Positions 1 through 7,768 of a DNA stretch of 7,768 nucleotides are shown here, piece by piece. Every line of letters begins with the position of its first letter. Position 1 is the first letter of the stretch. This DNA comes from an uncultured archaeon (lineage in GTDB: Archaea; Asgardarchaeota; Lokiarchaeia; Sigyniarchaeales; Promethearchaeaceae). A program made the position numbers and the translations under genes. The notes under the pieces are model-generated. The model saw only the letters and a list, made by a program, of their open reading frames with translations, was not told the origin of the DNA and searched no databases. Location of the stretch: positions 1 through 7,768 of the forward strand of contig CAYRPF010000108.1 in NCBI GenBank assembly GCA_964426185.1, in the 5' to 3' direction.

Positions 1-430
1 CCATTGAGTCATAAAATGAATTCCGATATTCTAAAGTTCTCCCCACGCATGTGGGGGTGTACCAGGGATGAAAATCTCAAAGATTGATTTACCCTTGTTC
101 TCCCCACGCATGTGGGGGTGTACCAAAAATAGTGAAAAGAGAAAAGGGGATTCATGAGTTCTCCCCACGCATGTGGGGGTGTACCATGAACTCGAATATT
201 TTTTTTGTCTTAATTGTTGTTCTCCCCACGCATGTGGGGGTGTACCATTGTGTGCCGCTCAAGGGACTCCAGTTGCAATATTCTCCCCACGCATGTGGGG
301 GTGTACCAAACATGAAAGCGAAAGGAATTTCATGGATATAATTCTCCCCACGCATGTGGGGGTGTACCACAAACATTGATTTAGTTGAAATTGATGTTGG
401 AATTCTCCCCACGCATGTGGGGGTGTACCA
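1..430 (+). CRISPR. Type I-E-like CRISPR array, leader-distal end, truncated by the left window edge
   Basis: Repeat (G/A)TTCTCCCCACGCATGTGGGGGTGTACCA starts at 36, 97, 158, 219, 280, 341 and 402 (exact 61-bp period), with unique 32-bp spacers. CCA at 1-3 is the in-phase end of a preceding repeat. The CCCCAC-GCAT-GTGGGG hairpin is followed by 8 nt (GTGTACCA), matching the I-E repeat architecture and 8-nt 5' handle, which implies + strand transcription with the leader off-window to the left. Confidence 0.97.
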
Positions 431-462
431 TATTTAAACTAATCCTAAGGCTTTTATTCTGA

Positions 463-491
463 GTTCTGATAATAAATGCAGAGGTTAAAAA
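463..491 (+). repeat. Degenerate terminal CRISPR repeat, preceded by a final 32-bp spacer at 431-462
   Basis: Starts exactly one period after the last intact repeat (402+61=463) with GTTCT. It matches the consensus at 15 of 29 positions ungapped (GTTCTgataAtaaATGcaGaGGTtaAaaA). The hairpin is destroyed. Confidence 0.6.
481..485 (+). promoter_or_regulatory. Shine-Dalgarno-like GAGGT for the DEDDh gene
   Basis: GAGGT lies 7 nt upstream of the ATG at 493, inside the degenerate repeat. Confidence 0.55.
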
Positions 492-492
492 T

Positions 493-1056
493 ATGCCCCA
501 ATTAGATGAAGATGAAGTGATGATTATTGATTTAGAGACTACTGGTTTTTTTCCTTTTAAGGATTTAATTGTAGAAATAGGAATAGTTCAATTGGATCTC
601 AATTCTGGAAAAAGAGACCATATAATGAACGAATTAGTTATTGAAAGCGAAAAGCGGTTAAGTCAAAAGAGAAATTCATGGATATTCAAGAATTCGGATT
701 TAACTTATGAAGAATTATTGGAAAAGGGAATAAGTCTAAGCGAAATTTCTTCAAAACTCTCTGATTTATTTAGGAGTAATAAATTTACAGGTTTTTATTC
801 TGAGTTCGATTTTACATTTTTAGAAGCGCGTGGATTTAAAATTGATAAAGCTGCTGATATAATGTATTTATCGAGAAAATACCTTAATATATACTATGGT
901 ATTGATAAATATCCCAGTGTCGAAGAATGTATGAAAAGGATTCTGAAAGATTATTCAAAAGAGCCGCACCGTGCGATTAAGGATGCTGAAATAGAAGCAA
1001 AAATATTATTTGAGATATGTAAAGATGAAGAAATAAGAGAAGAATTATTTAATTAA
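493..1056 (+). CDS. Stand-alone DEDDh (DnaQ/epsilon-like) 3'-5' exonuclease, 187 aa
   Basis: ExoI motif IIDLETTG, ExoII-like GFYSEFD (the usual HNxxFD is altered) and ExoIII motif HRAIKDA, with the typical IVEIGIV strand after ExoI. Confidence 0.92.
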   Translation: MPQLDEDEVMIIDLETTGFFPFKDLIVEIGIVQLDLNSGKRDHIMNELVIESEKRLSQKRNSWIFKNSDLTYEELLEKGISLSEISSKLSDLFRSNKFTGFYSEFDFTFLEARGFKIDKAADIMYLSRKYLNIYYGIDKYPSVEECMKRILKDYSKEPHRAIKDAEIEAKILFEICKDEEIREELFN

Positions 1057-1066
1057 GGATAGTTAG

Positions 1067-2422
1067 TTATACCAAATCTTTCCATAGGATTTCCTCCATA
1101 CCCTTTAAATCAAAGCAAAACACTTCTCTTTCATTAAATTCTTCAATTTTTTGTGAAAAACTTCTTGCAAAAACAACAAATGTATGTTCTTTTGTATGAA
1201 GTTTACCAGGATATCGTATTAATTGACCTTTTTTTGCTAATTCCTTAACTATTCGCTTAGCATTTACTTTTTCTTTCCATTTGCATTCAATAAGATAATC
1301 GTTTTTTGAAGTTGGAGAAAATGCAACTAGATCTATTTCATTTTCCTTCCACCACCATCGACCGATCTTGGAAAATTTGAATAAATCCATTTTAATTAGA
1401 AATTGTTTTGCTACTTTTTCAAAGATATGACCCAAATAATCGCTGTAGTCTGTCTTAATTTCATCAATACTTAATATTCCCTCTTCAAGGCTACTTAAAT
1501 TACCATAAATATAACGAAACCAAAATCTTAAGAAGTTATCCTTCAGAAAGTATCGCCCATTTCTCGAAGGAATTTTATCGGTAATTGGGATTTCTCGATG
1601 GATAAATTCTATTTCAATTAACTGACTTAAATACTTGGAAATTTGAGATGTATTTAAATTAATATGATTTGCAATAGCGTTCGGAGTGGTCTTACCAAAT
1701 GCTATAGCTTCAAGAATTTGCTTATACCTGCGAGCATTTTTAAATTCATATCGGATAATGAAATCGATTTCATCTTTTAAAAAACTTGTAGAAGATTTGA
1801 ATTCCGTTGATAACCAATCCCAGAAATCACCTTTGATCATATTTAAATAATAGGGGATTCCATCGGAAAATCCATAAATTTCGATTATTTCTTCCAACGA
1901 TTTGTTTGGAAAAAAAGCCTTCAAATCATAAAATTTAACAGGAGACAATTTTAAAGAAACGTCTTTCCTAGCATATAATGGGCTCGAGTGATCTAAAACA
2001 TTTTTGGTCATTAGAGATATTGAAGATCCCAAAAGAATTAGTTTCAGAGGAGAATCTTGTAGAAGAATATCTATGATATATTGAAAAGTATTAAGGATTT
2101 CTCTGTCTTCAAGGATTAAATTTTGAAATTCATCAATAATGATGAGATTAACTTTATTTCTGAGATATTTAAAGAGTATTTGATAATCTTTTTTGAGATC
2201 TAATATTTCGGGAACCTTTTTTGCACAAGTATTATAAAATTTATCGAGATTTTGCGTTTCTCCTGCAAGATAATAGATAAATTTTTCATTTTTGGCAATG
2301 TGTAAGGCTAATGCGGTTTTTCCAATTCTGCGCCGACCATAAATAACAATGATTTGTTTTTGTTTGGATGAAATTTTATTTAATAAATCTCGAACTTCCT
2401 TGGTTCTATCCTTAAATTCCAT
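1067..2422 (-). CDS. Archaeal AAA+ ATPase (COG1672-like) with wHTH and C-terminal DUF234/PD-(D/E)XK-like domain, 451 aa
   Basis: N-terminal F.DR..E, Walker A YGRRRIGKT, Walker B IIIDEFQ, LLGSS, SPLYAR and GIPYYL motifs. HTH-like TPNAIANHINLNTSQISKYLSQL, DNFLRFWFRY, and C-terminal GHIFE...GRWW...EIDLV...IECKW. Confidence 0.92.
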   Translation of the reverse strand: MEFKDRTKEVRDLLNKISSKQKQIIVIYGRRRIGKTALALHIAKNEKFIYYLAGETQNLDKFYNTCAKKVPEILDLKKDYQILFKYLRNKVNLIIIDEFQNLILEDREILNTFQYIIDILLQDSPLKLILLGSSISLMTKNVLDHSSPLYARKDVSLKLSPVKFYDLKAFFPNKSLEEIIEIYGFSDGIPYYLNMIKGDFWDWLSTEFKSSTSFLKDEIDFIIRYEFKNARRYKQILEAIAFGKTTPNAIANHINLNTSQISKYLSQLIEIEFIHREIPITDKIPSRNGRYFLKDNFLRFWFRYIYGNLSSLEEGILSIDEIKTDYSDYLGHIFEKVAKQFLIKMDLFKFSKIGRWWWKENEIDLVAFSPTSKNDYLIECKWKEKVNAKRIVKELAKKGQLIRYPGKLHTKEHTFVVFARSFSQKIEEFNEREVFCFDLKGMEEILWKDLV

Positions 2423-3097: not shown

Positions 3098-3571
3098 TTA
3101 TTTCAATTCTTCAATAATCTGATGAAAATCGTTTTTATTTGGATAAATAATTCGAATATCTCCCAAACTTACTTTAAAATCGGAATCCATGGTAATAAAT
3201 CCTGCACATTTGGTGTCAATTGCTGTAATCGCATGTAATGCGTCCATTGCATATAGATTTTGTTTGAATATCAAGGGTCGTGATTTTATAATATGCGTTT
3301 TCGAGATGGGAATCAAGAATAGAAATCTATCTCTAACTAATTCTTCAATATCTGCAAGAAAAAAGTCTAAAGCAACATTTGCAGAATGTAAATCAATTAC
3401 TTCCAGATTTACTTGCTTTTTAAAGGCCCGAAACATCTCAGTTATCATGATTTCATTGGTGATCATTTGAAAATTATCTCTGTTCTCTTCAAATATTTTA
3501 TCTACATATTTACTATCTTCGAAAGGGCAATAACGATAGTAGAATATGTTGGTATCTAAATAGAATTTCAT
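3098..3571 (-). CDS. vapC: PIN-domain VapC-type toxin, 157 aa
   Basis: FYLDTN, ITE, YAMDALHAITA and FITMDSDF provide the PIN acidic residues. Its ATG overlaps the upstream antitoxin stop (ATGA at 3568-3571). Confidence 0.9.
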   Translation of the reverse strand: MKFYLDTNIFYYRYCPFEDSKYVDKIFEENRDNFQMITNEIMITEMFRAFKKQVNLEVIDLHSANVALDFFLADIEELVRDRFLFLIPISKTHIIKSRPLIFKQNLYAMDALHAITAIDTKCAGFITMDSDFKVSLGDIRIIYPNKNDFHQIIEELK

Positions 3572-3807
3572 GAACCTTCCTCACGGATTTCTCGAATCAC
3601 GTCAATTCCATTCTTAAAAGGTTTTTTGGCCTGCGATTGAAGAAAATTTCGCAAGTCTTGAGCACTTAGAATTTTTAATTTCTGCTTGATAAAGGTGTGG
3701 ATCCCTCCTCGTATCGCTTCACTTCGATTTTTGATAACCCCAGCTTGAACCAGTTGGTCCAACCATTCGATCAAATCATTATCAAGAAATACAGAAATGT
3801 TAGTCAT
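3568..3807 (-). CDS. Ribbon-helix-helix (CopG/NikR-like) antitoxin, 79 aa; true start is probably 3807 rather than 4047
   Basis: MTNISVFLDNDLIEWLDQLVQAGVIKNRSEAIRGGI is a classic RHH signature, and the C-terminal GIDVIREIRE resembles archaeal VapB tails. 4-bp overlap with vapC. A TATA-like box lies 23-28 nt upstream of the 3807 ATG. Confidence 0.88.
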   Translation of the reverse strand: MTNISVFLDNDLIEWLDQLVQAGVIKNRSEAIRGGIHTFIKQKLKILSAQDLRNFLQSQAKKPFKNGIDVIREIREEGS

Positions 3808-3811
3808 AATT

Positions 3812-3846
3812 ATAATAGAAAAAATATAATATAAAAATACTATTAT
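3812..3846 (-). promoter_or_regulatory. Putative archaeal promoter of the RHH-vapC operon with a flanking inverted repeat
   Basis: TTTATA on the minus strand at 3830-3835, at leaderless-transcript spacing from ATG 3807. It is bracketed by ATAATAG (3812-3818) and CTATTAT (3840-3846). The context is very AT-rich, so support is modest. Confidence 0.45.
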
Positions 3847-3961
3847 TTTTCTTGTTAATACTGCTTTCATCATCAAGATATTGGATTGTTCTTCTTCACA
3901 TGAGGAGTTATTTTCTAACTTTGTGGAGGCAGAACAGCAACATATATGAAAGTAATTGAAA

Positions 3962-4288
3962 TTATCGATTAAATTTTTCTTCACTGATGATTTGCTGAGC
4001 AATTTCATCTGTATAATCATCGAGATCTGCCTCAATAGGCGGTTCAATATTTTCCTTCACAATAATTTCCAAGATTTGATCAGGCGTGAGGGAGGTAAGG
4101 TGGAGTATTTTTTTCAGACCAATTTTACCTTGCTTATAATCTTCCAACAAAATGGGTAGGATTTTATCGGTTAATTGATCGATTAAAATCTGGCGTGTGC
4201 AAACTGCCTTTGATATATTTTTCCTTTTTGCAAGATATTCAAGTAATTGATTGATTTCTTTGTTTACTCGAATGTTAATTTGATGCAT
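3962..4288 (-). CDS. RHH + UPF0175-like HTH putative antitoxin, 108 aa
   Basis: N-terminal QINIRVNKEINQLLEYLAKRKNISKAVCTRQIL (RHH), then LEDYKQGKIGLKKILHLTSLT...ILEIIVKENI (UPF0175-like Y..GKIS...A pattern) and an acidic tail. Confidence 0.8.
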   Translation of the reverse strand: MHQINIRVNKEINQLLEYLAKRKNISKAVCTRQILIDQLTDKILPILLEDYKQGKIGLKKILHLTSLTPDQILEIIVKENIEPPIEADLDDYTDEIAQQIISEEKFNR

Positions 4289-4347: not shown

Positions 4348-4824
4348 ATGAATCTAATGATAGACACCTTTTCATGGAAGAAAATTGACCTTTTATCGCA
4401 GGAGGATCTTATTAATCTCGATCTTTTTTATAAGTGGGCTCAAATTTACATAACGCATGAAGTCAAAAAGGAAATAGAGCATTTTGGATTAGATTCATGC
4501 AGAATCAATGCGATCACCATTTTACCTGTGAAAAACAAAAAATATTACAAATTTGCCTTAGATTTAGGATTTGATGCAGCAGATTCTGAGATTTTTAGCA
4601 ATTGCAGTTCTACCAAAGAAATGACAATAGTATCCGAAGATAAGCCGTTATTGAAACTTTTACAATCCTTTAAAGCCAGGGCGATACAAGTGATAGATCT
4701 ATTTGGAATCTATTATAAATTGGATTTAATCAAATCAAAGGAGTTAATTCGAATAAATAAATACTGTAGAGCGAAGAAAAATATTACAGATAGAAAATTC
4801 AAAAAGATTAACCAATATCGTTAA
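4348..4824 (+). CDS. PIN-domain protein (DUF3368-like), 158 aa
   Basis: LMIDT, IYITHEVKKEI, GFDAADSEI and IVSEDKPL follow PIN acidic-residue spacing, with a C-terminal helical extension as in DUF3368-type PINs. Confidence 0.75.
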   Translation: MNLMIDTFSWKKIDLLSQEDLINLDLFYKWAQIYITHEVKKEIEHFGLDSCRINAITILPVKNKKYYKFALDLGFDAADSEIFSNCSSTKEMTIVSEDKPLLKLLQSFKARAIQVIDLFGIYYKLDLIKSKELIRINKYCRAKKNITDRKFKKINQYR

Positions 4825-5920: not shown

Positions 5921-6001
5921 TTATATGTGCTTTCTCTTGAAGAAAACTAGAACTATTGCAGAAATTAATAAAATGGGGACGAAATTATAAAAGCCAGGGA
6001 T
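5921..6001 (-). other. C-terminal protein-sorting signal (Loki-CTERM/PGF-CTERM-like)
   Basis: IPGFYNFVPILLISAIVLVFFKRKHI* has the tripartite motif, TM helix and basic cluster layout. Confidence 0.75.
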
Positions 6002-7768
6002 ATTCAAGTTTTCCATCAAATTATCATAATTAAATGGGTTTTCATTATTGTCTTTGTCATCATTTGCTTCATTATCAGTGGAATCATCGCTGTCACTGGA
6101 ATTATCGTTGTCATTATTTTGGTCATTGTTAGAATCATTGGTGAAAACAACTGTTATCGAAATAATATCTGACATCGGAGATTGTCCACTGCCATTTACT
6201 GCAACTAGATATATATTGAATCTCCCTTCAGTAGGAAATGTAATACTACAATTTGCATAATTTGAAGTGTTTGTAAGGGTATTATTCACCCAAATCTCAT
6301 AATAGTCGACCATCGGAATCGATTCCCAATAAAGAAAGATATAATCCGCAGTTATTTCGGTACTAGTCGTTATCCATACTGGAGCAGGCGGTAATTCGTT
6401 TTTTATGGTTATCCATAATGATTCTGATATGTTAGATTTTCCAATGGCATTTACCGCTACCAGAGTTATGTTATAAAGGCCTACATCTGGAAAAATTACA
6501 GTAAAGCTGTTTTGAGTGGTTGTATCCACCATAGTTTGATTGATCCAAATCTCGTAATAATCCACCAAAGGTATTGATTCCCATTGAATTGCTAAAGTTC
6601 GATGAATCGTGGTGGCATTTGCAGTAATCCATACCGGTGTTTGCGGTAATTCGTTTTTTATGGTTATCCATAACGATTCAGACAAATTTGATTTTCCACT
6701 GGCATTTACTGCTACCAGAGTTATGTTATAAAGGCCTACATCGGGAAAATTAACGGTATAACTGCTTAGTGTGGTTGTATTCACCAATGTTTGATTGATC
6801 CAAATCTCGTAATAATCCACCGAAGGTATTGATTCCCATTGAATTGCCAAAGTTCGATGAATCGTGGTGGTATTTGCAGTAATCCATACCGGAGCAGGTG
6901 GCATTTCGTTTTTTATGGTTATCCATAACGATTCAGACAAATTTGATTTTCCACTGGCATTTACCGCTGCCAGAGTTATGTTATAAAGGCCCACATCGGG
7001 AAAATTAACGGTATAACTGTTTTGTGTGGTTGTATCCACCATAGTTAGATCTATCCAAATCTCGTAATAATCCACCAAAGGGATTGATTCCCATTGAATT
7101 GCCAAAGTTCGATGAATCGTGGTGGTATTAGTAGTAATCCATACCGGAGCGGGTGGCAATTCGTTTATGGATATCCATAACGAATCTGATATGTTAGATT
7201 TTCCACTGGCATTTGCCGCTACCAGAGTTATGTTATAAAGGCCCACATCGGGAAAATTAACGGTATAGCTGTTTTGAGTGGTTATATCCACCATAGTTTG
7301 ATTGATCCAAATCTCGTAATAATCCACCAAAGGGATTGATTCCCATTGAATTGCTAAAGTTCGATGAATCGTGGTGGTATTTGCAGTAATCCACACAGGC
7401 GCCCAAGGAAGACATAGTTCGAAGTTGTTATTAAAAGTGTTATCATAAGAATCAAATGACACAAAAATATTTTCACTATTTCGGAAAAATCGGTTATTTT
7501 CTATGATATTTCTATTTGAACTTGTAATCCAAATTCCTTTGTATTTGATATATTCTATAGTATTGTTTAAGATAATACTTTCGTTCGTATTAATCAGTTT
7601 AATTCCATTTTCGATAGAATAAATGTGATTATCTTGAACATAAGAAGAAACGCAATAATCCAAAATTACTGATCCTGTCCAATCAAGTTGCCCTGCTCCT
7701 AAATCTAATTTTTGGTTACAAATATCGTTCAAATAAATTCTAATTCCACTAGAATCATAAAAATATAT
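5921..7768 (-). CDS. Large cell-surface glycoprotein (5' end outside window): beta-helix (NosD/PbH1-like) + 5 FN3/Ig-like repeats + D/N linker + IPGF-CTERM anchor
   Basis: The frame stays open from 7732 to the window edge (IYFYDSSGIRIYLND...), so the TTG at 7732 is probably not the start. Beta-helix-type GI.L.....NII.NN.I repeats, PxAPVW...IQWESIP.VDYYEIW...YNITLVAVN..GKS repeats, an acidic linker and a C-terminal IPGF + hydrophobic helix + KRKH. Confidence 0.9.
   Translation of the reverse strand: MYFYDSSGIRIYLNDICNQKLDLGAGQLDWTGSVILDYCVSSYVQDNHIYSIENGIKLINTNESIILNNTIEYIKYKGIWITSSNRNIIENNRFFRNSENIFVSFDSYDNTFNNNFELCLPWAPVWITANTTTIHRTLAIQWESIPLVDYYEIWINQTMVDITTQNSYTVNFPDVGLYNITLVAANASGKSNISDSLWISINELPPAPVWITTNTTTIHRTLAIQWESIPLVDYYEIWIDLTMVDTTTQNSYTVNFPDVGLYNITLAAVNASGKSNLSESLWITIKNEMPPAPVWITANTTTIHRTLAIQWESIPSVDYYEIWINQTLVNTTTLSSYTVNFPDVGLYNITLVAVNASGKSNLSESLWITIKNELPQTPVWITANATTIHRTLAIQWESIPLVDYYEIWINQTMVDTTTQNSFTVIFPDVGLYNITLVAVNAIGKSNISESLWITIKNELPPAPVWITTSTEITADYIFLYWESIPMVDYYEIWVNNTLTNTSNYANCSITFPTEGRFNIYLVAVNGSGQSPMSDIISITVVFTNDSNNDQNNDNDNSSDSDDSTDNEANDDKDNNENPFNYDNLMENLNIPGFYNFVPILLISAIVLVFFKRKHI
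6143..7411 (-). repeat. Five intragenic tandem repeats of 252-255 bp encoding FN3/Ig-like domains
   Basis: Units start (minus strand) at 7411, 7159, 6904, 6649 and 6394. The marker GATTCCCA recurs at 6321, 6576, 6831, 7086 and 7338. Units 1-4 are near-identical and unit 5 is diverged. Confidence 0.95.

Follow-up and report, generated by a model that had tools for sequence, protein, structure and literature searches.

For CRISPR-Cas systems that lack Cas4, the accepted model is that host exonucleases do the trimming in trans (PMC10284694). Prespacers are trimmed by DEDDh domains fused to Cas2 in some bacterial type I-E systems, and by Pol III epsilon and ExoT in E. coli (PMC10470216, PMC10284694), while free Pol III epsilon and ExoT can partly rescue a dead Cas2-DnaQ mutant (PMC10470216). 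CRISPR-Cas loci are in addition described as widely carrying stand-alone DEDDh exonucleases as ancillary parts (Makarova et al. 2020, cited by PMC10284694). How correctly sized, PAM-free spacers arise in Cas4-less systems is settled for few bacterial models only. Here we describe an archaeal locus of this kind. The window that we analysed, an entire contig of 7,768 bp (C108) from a 92%-complete Asgard archaeal genome of 3.26 Mb and 34% GC (G000), carries a gene for a free DEDDh exonuclease, P0002, at the trailer end of a type I-E array.

Like the catalogued stand-alone DEDDh ancillary genes, P0002 is small and single-domain, lies beside a CRISPR-Cas locus that lacks Cas4, and matches the PADLOC model PDLC01247 (‘DEDDh, CAS associated’) over its full length (E 1.4e-18). 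It differs from them in its Asgard host and in its position, which is at the array trailer and neither within the cas operon nor in front of it; moreover, PDLC01247 scores non-CRISPR homologues equally well and so fails to single P0002 out from a family that is mostly unlinked to CRISPR. Cas2-DEDDh of Megasphaera NM10 (PDB 8FY9-8FYD, PMC10284694) and Cas2-DnaQ of S. thermophilus DGCC7710 (8H18/8H2F, PMC10470216) have the same fold and DEDDh site as P0002 (TM 0.72/0.78 and 0.70/0.79). These systems and the one described here are all of type I-E without Cas4, and the job proposed for P0002 is the same, but P0002 is unfused and only 21-24% identical to these domains, and the local Cas2e is instead fused to a catalytically dead domain of DEDDy/RNase_H_2 type. 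Pol III epsilon and ExoT of E. coli (PMC10470216, PMC10284694) are likewise free DnaQ-family enzymes that act in trans on Cas1-Cas2-bound prespacers, an action that is proposed in the case of P0002. These are housekeeping enzymes encoded far from CRISPR, however, whereas P0002 is an additional copy beside the array, and the housekeeping-like counterpart of the E. coli trimmers in this genome is a paralogue on another contig (C65). Finally, among phage proteins the best match of P0002 is to the DnaQ-like exonucleases of PHROG 192 (‘DNA polymerase exonuclease subunit’, 2.3e-22), a model that likewise fails to separate it from its non-CRISPR relatives, and P0002 has no replication or recombination gene adjacent to it.

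What is new here is therefore modest: an Asgard example, the placement at an array trailer, and a neighbouring Cas2e with a decayed fused DEDDy-type domain. The genome presents a natural archaeal case in which the exonuclease fused to Cas2 is dead and an intact free exonuclease is encoded on the array, an arrangement that mirrors the laboratory rescue of dead Cas2-DnaQ by free DnaQ-family enzymes (PMC10470216). Cas1, the Cas2e with its dead domain and P0002 would together provide a simple three-protein test of natural trimming in trans, of the role of the dead domain and of Asgard I-E adaptation. If P0002 is merely a neighbour of the array, the finding is ordinary.

The array, its trailer and the type I-E operon

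Table 1. Features read along the 7,768-bp window, with positions counted from its first nucleotide.
Feature	Positions	Strand	Basis or remark
CCA (last 3 nt of a repeat truncated at the contig boundary) and one 32-nt spacer	1-35	+	direct reading
Type I-E CRISPR array, seven 29-nt repeats and six 32-nt spacers	36-430	+	repeat [G/A]TTCTCCCCACGCATGTGGGGGTGTACCA
Terminal 32-nt pseudo-spacer	431-462	+	TATA-like TATTTAAA at 431-438; short T run (four T) at 452-455
Degenerate terminal repeat	463-491	+	15 of 29 bases matching, in exact 61-nt register
Stand-alone DEDDh (DnaQ-like) 3'-5' exonuclease, 187 aa (P0002)	493-1056	+	Pfam RNase_T
ATPase_2, DUF234 and wHTH protein	1067-2422	-	like PADLOC defence candidate PDC-S27, E 1.9e-37
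PIN-domain protein with ribbon-helix-helix (RHH) and DUF6290-like small proteins	3098-4288; 4348-4824	-; +	VapBC-like toxin-antitoxin arrangements
Surface protein with beta-helix N-terminal part	5921-7768	-	5' end cut by the contig end

The repeats start at 36, 97, 158, 219, 280, 341 and 402, an exact period of 61 by which every spacer is 32 nt long, as the first-pass annotation of this DNA had stated. Its placement of the exonuclease gene also agrees with our coordinates: the gene is co-oriented with the array, with its start 62 nt beyond the end of the last intact repeat (430) and 1 nt past a decayed copy. Since this eighth copy (463-491) keeps the register of the array and random genomic 29-mers matched the repeat as well in only 0.08% of trials, we take it to be a genuine degenerate terminal repeat. 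Within it, at 481-485, lies a Shine-Dalgarno-like GAGGT that could, by its position in the sequence, serve as the ribosome-binding site of the ORF at 493-1056. The intact repeat follows the E. coli-type I-E pattern, in which an 8-nt handle comes after a stem (CCCCAC/GTGGGG).

A complete I-E operon was found on a separate contig (C82, locus L011), where cas3, cse1, cse2, cas7, cas5, cas6e, cas1e and cas2e lie on one strand. All eight Cas proteins scored above the I-E Pfam cut-offs and seven of them above the NCBIfam models too; Cas3 fell below the cut-off of the full-length NCBIfam equivalog, but above those of the Cas3 core and HD domain models. Downstream of cas2e, a leader of ~200 nt is followed by two copies of the repeat seen in the window, which run off the contig end. 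The features of a type I-E locus are all present, namely a 29-nt stem-loop repeat, an 8-nt handle, 32-nt spacers and an eight-gene operon that shares the repeat, and the earlier description of the array as type I-E-like is borne out by the build of the repeat, the length of the spacers and the occurrence of the same repeat beside the operon. The same annotation had suggested looking for cas1, cas2e, cse1 and cse2 and for the absence of cas4: the four genes are there, and the Cas4 family had no match in the 92%-complete genome. The operon contig also bears (L011, 11797-11885) a mini-array made up of one 32-nt spacer and two repeats, one of which has a mismatch. It lies 48 nt upstream of the cas3 start, with the cas operon on the other strand.

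The repeat follows cas2 and the leader on C82 in the same orientation, which puts the exonuclease gene on the crRNA strand, at the trailer end of the array. On its array side, C82 breaks off after a 32-nt spacer and the first 2 nt (AT) of the next repeat, and the window opens with the last 3 nt of a repeat and another 32-nt spacer; these ends are compatible with the two contigs being pieces of one array, a join that we infer and that is not in the assembly. Searches with the spacers returned no match in the genome itself (up to 5 mismatches), in the fetched loci (up to 7 mismatches) or, for two spacers and exact matches only, in viral contigs, and the spacers therefore yield neither PAM nor target evidence. 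A likeness between spacer 5 (309-340) and the exonuclease gene (643-686), which share the blocks GAAAGCGAAA and TTCATGGATAT (10 and 11-13 nt), was considered and set aside as probably due to chance; the blocks are spaced 5 nt apart in the spacer and 22 nt apart in the gene, and are mutually out of frame.

The claim that the trailer leaves little room for a promoter of the gene's own is not safe, because 62 nt can hold an archaeal TATA/BRE promoter. When we derived a promoter consensus from the regions upstream of the tRNA genes of this genome, many of these genes were found to be preceded, 35-60 nt upstream, by an A5-7T3-5(A/T)A element, which is probably the BRE/TATA consensus of the organism. 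The leader on C82 contains one A5-7T3-5 element, 52-59 nt ahead of the first repeat, and there is none in positions 1-1100 of the window, trailer included, an absence that weighs little over 62 nt. Since the trailer offers only TATTTAAA (431-438) and the T run (452-455), read-through from the array is possible.

On its other side, the exonuclease gene is convergent with the PDC-S27-like gene across a 10-nt gap, where the unit on the + strand ends. This ATPase was considered as the partner of P0002 in a module and rejected, as it was never found beside other DEDDh homologues. Together with the PIN and RHH genes it forms a low-GC accessory island that adjoins the array; the exonuclease gene, at 29% GC, resembles these island neighbours, while the C65 paralogue has 37%. 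The surface protein at the far end of the window has, beyond its beta-helix part, five nearly identical PKD/Ig-like repeats of ~95 aa and an Asp/Asn-rich linker, and it ends in a PGF-type membrane anchor. This anchor and the archaeal-type ATPase fit a Loki-type Asgard host.

The trailer exonuclease and the local Cas2e

P0002 matches Pfam RNase_T (PF00929) with an E-value of 1.9e-12 and 48.5 bits (cut-off 24), covering profile positions 2-164 of 164, and its catalytic residues D13, E15, D106, H159 and D164 (Exo I DxE, Exo II D, Exo III Hx4D) are invariant in 19 aligned members of the family, P0002 included. Its AF2 model (pLDDT 94.5) has the RNase H-like DnaQ fold, and Foldseek paired it, at a probability of 1.00, with structures of that fold, 8H2F, 2GUI and 8FYC_K among them. 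In the ranking of PDB folds, the first two places are taken by 8H2F and 8H18, which represent the Cas2-fused DnaQ domain of S. thermophilus type I-E (PMC10470216), and the Megasphaera Cas2-DEDDh (8FYC_K) comes fourth, just beside Pol III epsilon. The margins between these matches are small and a sequence profile of the whole family yields similar ones, and the fold matches show a resemblance of P0002, not its membership of a CRISPR-specific clade. Two other identities were rejected: P0002 is not Pol III epsilon (DnaQ proper), as it reaches 20.5 bits against a cut-off of 222.7 with TIGR01406 and 25 against 71.5 with TIGR00573, and it is not a Cas2-DEDDh trimmer-integrase, as it is a separate ORF of 187 aa with no Cas2 domain.

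The local Cas2e (P0001) is a protein of 392 aa in which the Cas2 portion takes up only residues 6-89 and is followed by a C-terminal exonuclease-like domain. We compared its motifs in an alignment with 11 homologues. Several of the more distant homologues carry Pfam RNase_H_2, and the distant relatives have an intact DEDDy-type site, made up of DIETTD, FNxxFD and YNxxD; the counterparts in P0001 read SLETTD, HREKIL and FNLLK. In P0001 and two further proteins (P0075 and P0076) the first Asp is replaced by Ser, Cys or Ala, the Exo II Asp is absent and the Exo III Asp is replaced by Lys, and in P0078 both Exo II and Exo III are degenerate. P0075, from Candidatus Harpocratesius sp. (WP_457557388.1), is 69% identical to P0001, and its domain is also dead, as are those of P0076 and P0078. 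Because P0001 has lost the catalytic motifs that its relatives keep, its fused exonuclease is inactive, and a trimmer acting in trans becomes plausible for a locus whose Cas2e domain lacks catalytic residues. The first-pass annotation had named a DEDDh domain on the local cas2 as an argument against a free trimmer. A fused exonuclease-like domain is present in form, but it is of DEDDy type and catalytically dead.

Asgard I-E trailers, the wider family and the proposed role of P0002

Cas2e was found in only 6 of 400 Asgard genomes. We located the arrays of these genomes by their repeat, and four trailers could be read. Two of them carry a DEDDh gene: that of the window, where the exonuclease domain of Cas2 is dead, and that of Promethearchaeota (Lokiarchaeon) CR_4 (G002), where no Cas2 exonuclease was seen in a region that contains an N gap. 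The other two show none, either beside a Cas2 with intact exonuclease motifs (G018) or, over the 447 nt available, beside one whose motifs are intact but whose gene carries a stop (G268). DEDDh genes of the P0002 family hence abut two of the four visible trailers, and these belong to the two loci in which no intact Cas2 exonuclease was seen; a split of two against two by Cas2 status is suggestive and proves nothing. As the family occurs at a frequency of ~0.3 per genome of roughly 4000 genes, two matches in four specified slots are beyond chance, even if a hundred-fold enrichment in defence islands is allowed for.

In CR_4 (G002:C163) the I-E array has 47 repeats, and the DEDDh gene at its trailer is convergent with it; the two are joined across an N run, which also cuts the 3' end of the gene. 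Across these loci, Cas1e proteins are 51-56% identical, the highest pair being that of our genome and CR_4. The two array-adjacent DEDDh genes themselves are 34% identical, have long branches and do not group in the tree, and by the AU test their grouping as a clade is neither supported nor rejected (p 0.41). The Cas2e region of CR_4 (L032, 8656-9318) comprises a Cas2e domain, a proline-rich linker, a 38-N scaffold gap and the end of an ORF with a SWIM-like zinc finger (CSCPVRRNCKHC), which could belong to a Cas2-SWIM fusion or to a separate small gene. No exonuclease domain was seen in this region, in which the 38-N gap lies.

On this evidence our favoured, if tentative, reading, which we hold with a little less than even confidence, is that P0002 is a CRISPR-linked trimmer that acts in trans. 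P0002 is an accessory, fast-evolving DnaQ-like DEDDh 3'-5' DNA exonuclease that now lies at the trailer end of an I-E array. In this reading it would cut back the 3' overhangs of Cas1-Cas2e-bound prespacers until they fit the 32-nt ruler, and would also take off the PAM. It would thereby supply an activity that the local Cas2e cannot, its own fused domain being dead. P0002 might be expressed from the weak TATA-like element of the trailer, or else through read-through of the pre-crRNA and cleavage by Cas6e in the last intact repeat, in which case its mRNA would begin with the 8-nt handle. Activity on prespacers, contact with Cas1-Cas2 and the mode of expression are all points that we infer. As the CR_4 gene is convergent with its array, co-transcription is no general feature of the association.

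The family as a whole is not CRISPR-specific. In the order to which this genome belongs, 26 of the 101 genomes searched carry homologues; apart from the window these occupy 33 sites, with identities of no more than 45%, and 20 of the 25 other genomes that bear them show no Cas1. When 79 metagenome loci and 57 viral contigs were added to the 33 Asgard sites, only one of these 169 other sites, that of CR_4, was in contact with an array; in this one respect a condition that the first-pass annotation had itself named against its proposal holds, homologues being overwhelmingly unlinked to CRISPR. Among the best 80 metagenome loci a single array was found, on a contig of the organism studied here (L150, 100% identical), and the other 79 had none; nor did any of the 57 viral contigs have one. 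A comparable picture came from 80 Cas2e loci of reference genomes (mostly bacterial, 60 with arrays), in which the CR_4 locus was the only one with a member of the family and the ~77 mainly bacterial loci had none nearby. The linkage of relatives to CRISPR points both ways: two of the four visible Asgard I-E trailers carry a family member, and only one of the 169 other homologue sites, again that of CR_4, is linked to an array.

Such a distribution is what would be expected if P0002 were an incidental neighbour, a solitary mobile or island-borne DnaQ-like exonuclease beside a static trailer with no role in adaptation, for example what is left of a replication-recombination module from a virus or plasmid, or a gene of a defence island. 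We regard this account, whatever the origin, as the main rival, somewhat less likely than the trimmer reading. The family is not only mostly unlinked to CRISPR but also common in two other settings. Its members on the 57 viral contigs, at 31-40% identity, sit among genes for DnaD- and DnaC-like loaders, RecT, SbcC-like proteins and primase-helicases, and in two genera it shows conserved housekeeping synteny beside arcTGT-like, SAH hydrolase, aEF2 and FttA genes. The island in the window, with its PDC-S27-like ATPase and PIN/RHH pairs, also fits this account. Furthermore, no homologue of P0002 above 46% identity was found among 5.8 billion proteins, and the sister lineage represented by P0075, which is present in the same set and whose Cas2 domain is also dead, apparently has no orthologue, a point against a strict partnership. 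Against an incidental neighbour stand the two Asgard trailers, which exceed chance even with strong island enrichment and which belong to the loci without an intact Cas2 exonuclease. In addition, none of the other genes around P0002 was found again beside a homologue, and no polymerase, loader, replication or recombination gene lies nearby.

P0002 is not the only DnaQ-like enzyme of the host. The first-pass annotation had supposed an archaeal host lacking bacterial Pol III epsilon, but a DEDDh paralogue on C65 was vertically inherited: it forms a tight group with the copies in the two other genomes of the genus and shares their synteny; P0002 is an extra, divergent copy on a long branch that has no orthologue in the genus. 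Returning to the trimmer reading, the earlier proposal is partly supported: a free-standing trimmer at this locus is favoured by the complete I-E operon, the failure to find Cas4, the Cas2e domain without its catalytic residues and the case of CR_4. That it is dedicated to this task is weakened by a family mostly unlinked to CRISPR and by the host paralogue.

An extension of the trimmer reading, which we consider unlikely, is that of a split trimmer-integrase, in which the domain fused to Cas2 would serve as an inactive scaffold and the catalytic trimmer would be encoded at the array end and made from Cas6e-cut read-through of the pre-crRNA; if this were true, the supply of trimmer would be tied to transcription of the array.

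Type I-E crRNAs retain the Cas6e-bound 3' hairpin and need no 3' trimming, which tells against the use of P0002 in tidying the 3' trailer of the pre-crRNA. This or another CRISPR-linked role outside trimming, such as the degradation or shortening of Cas3 fragments in interference or primed adaptation, is quite improbable: it would account for the linkage to the array as well as a trimmer does, and stand-alone DEDDh ancillary proteins occur in every CRISPR type with no role assigned in the literature (PMC10284694), but the viral members of the family, set in DNA replication and recombination modules, argue for DNA substrates, the best structural matches are adaptation trimmers, and no sequence feature points to such a role.

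Other architectures in the family

Some copies of the family are fused to reverse transcriptases or LRR domains. In two genomes the family DEDDh domain forms the N-terminus of giant proteins of 1150-1167 aa (L050, 6046-9546, in G100; L059, 3744-7193, in G093), the first of which also contains a reverse transcriptase matching DRT-type models (RT_UG36, UG34 and Drt3a). In a third (L058, 343-4884, in G049), the DEDDh domain is C-terminal in a protein of 1514 aa with no other recognised domain. Finally, two DEDDh-family genes, of 182 aa and 658 aa, were seen within a run of ~16 small co-oriented genes that includes a DNA methylase (L047, G053:C49, 200-10400) and that resembles an Asgard archaeal virus or integrated element.
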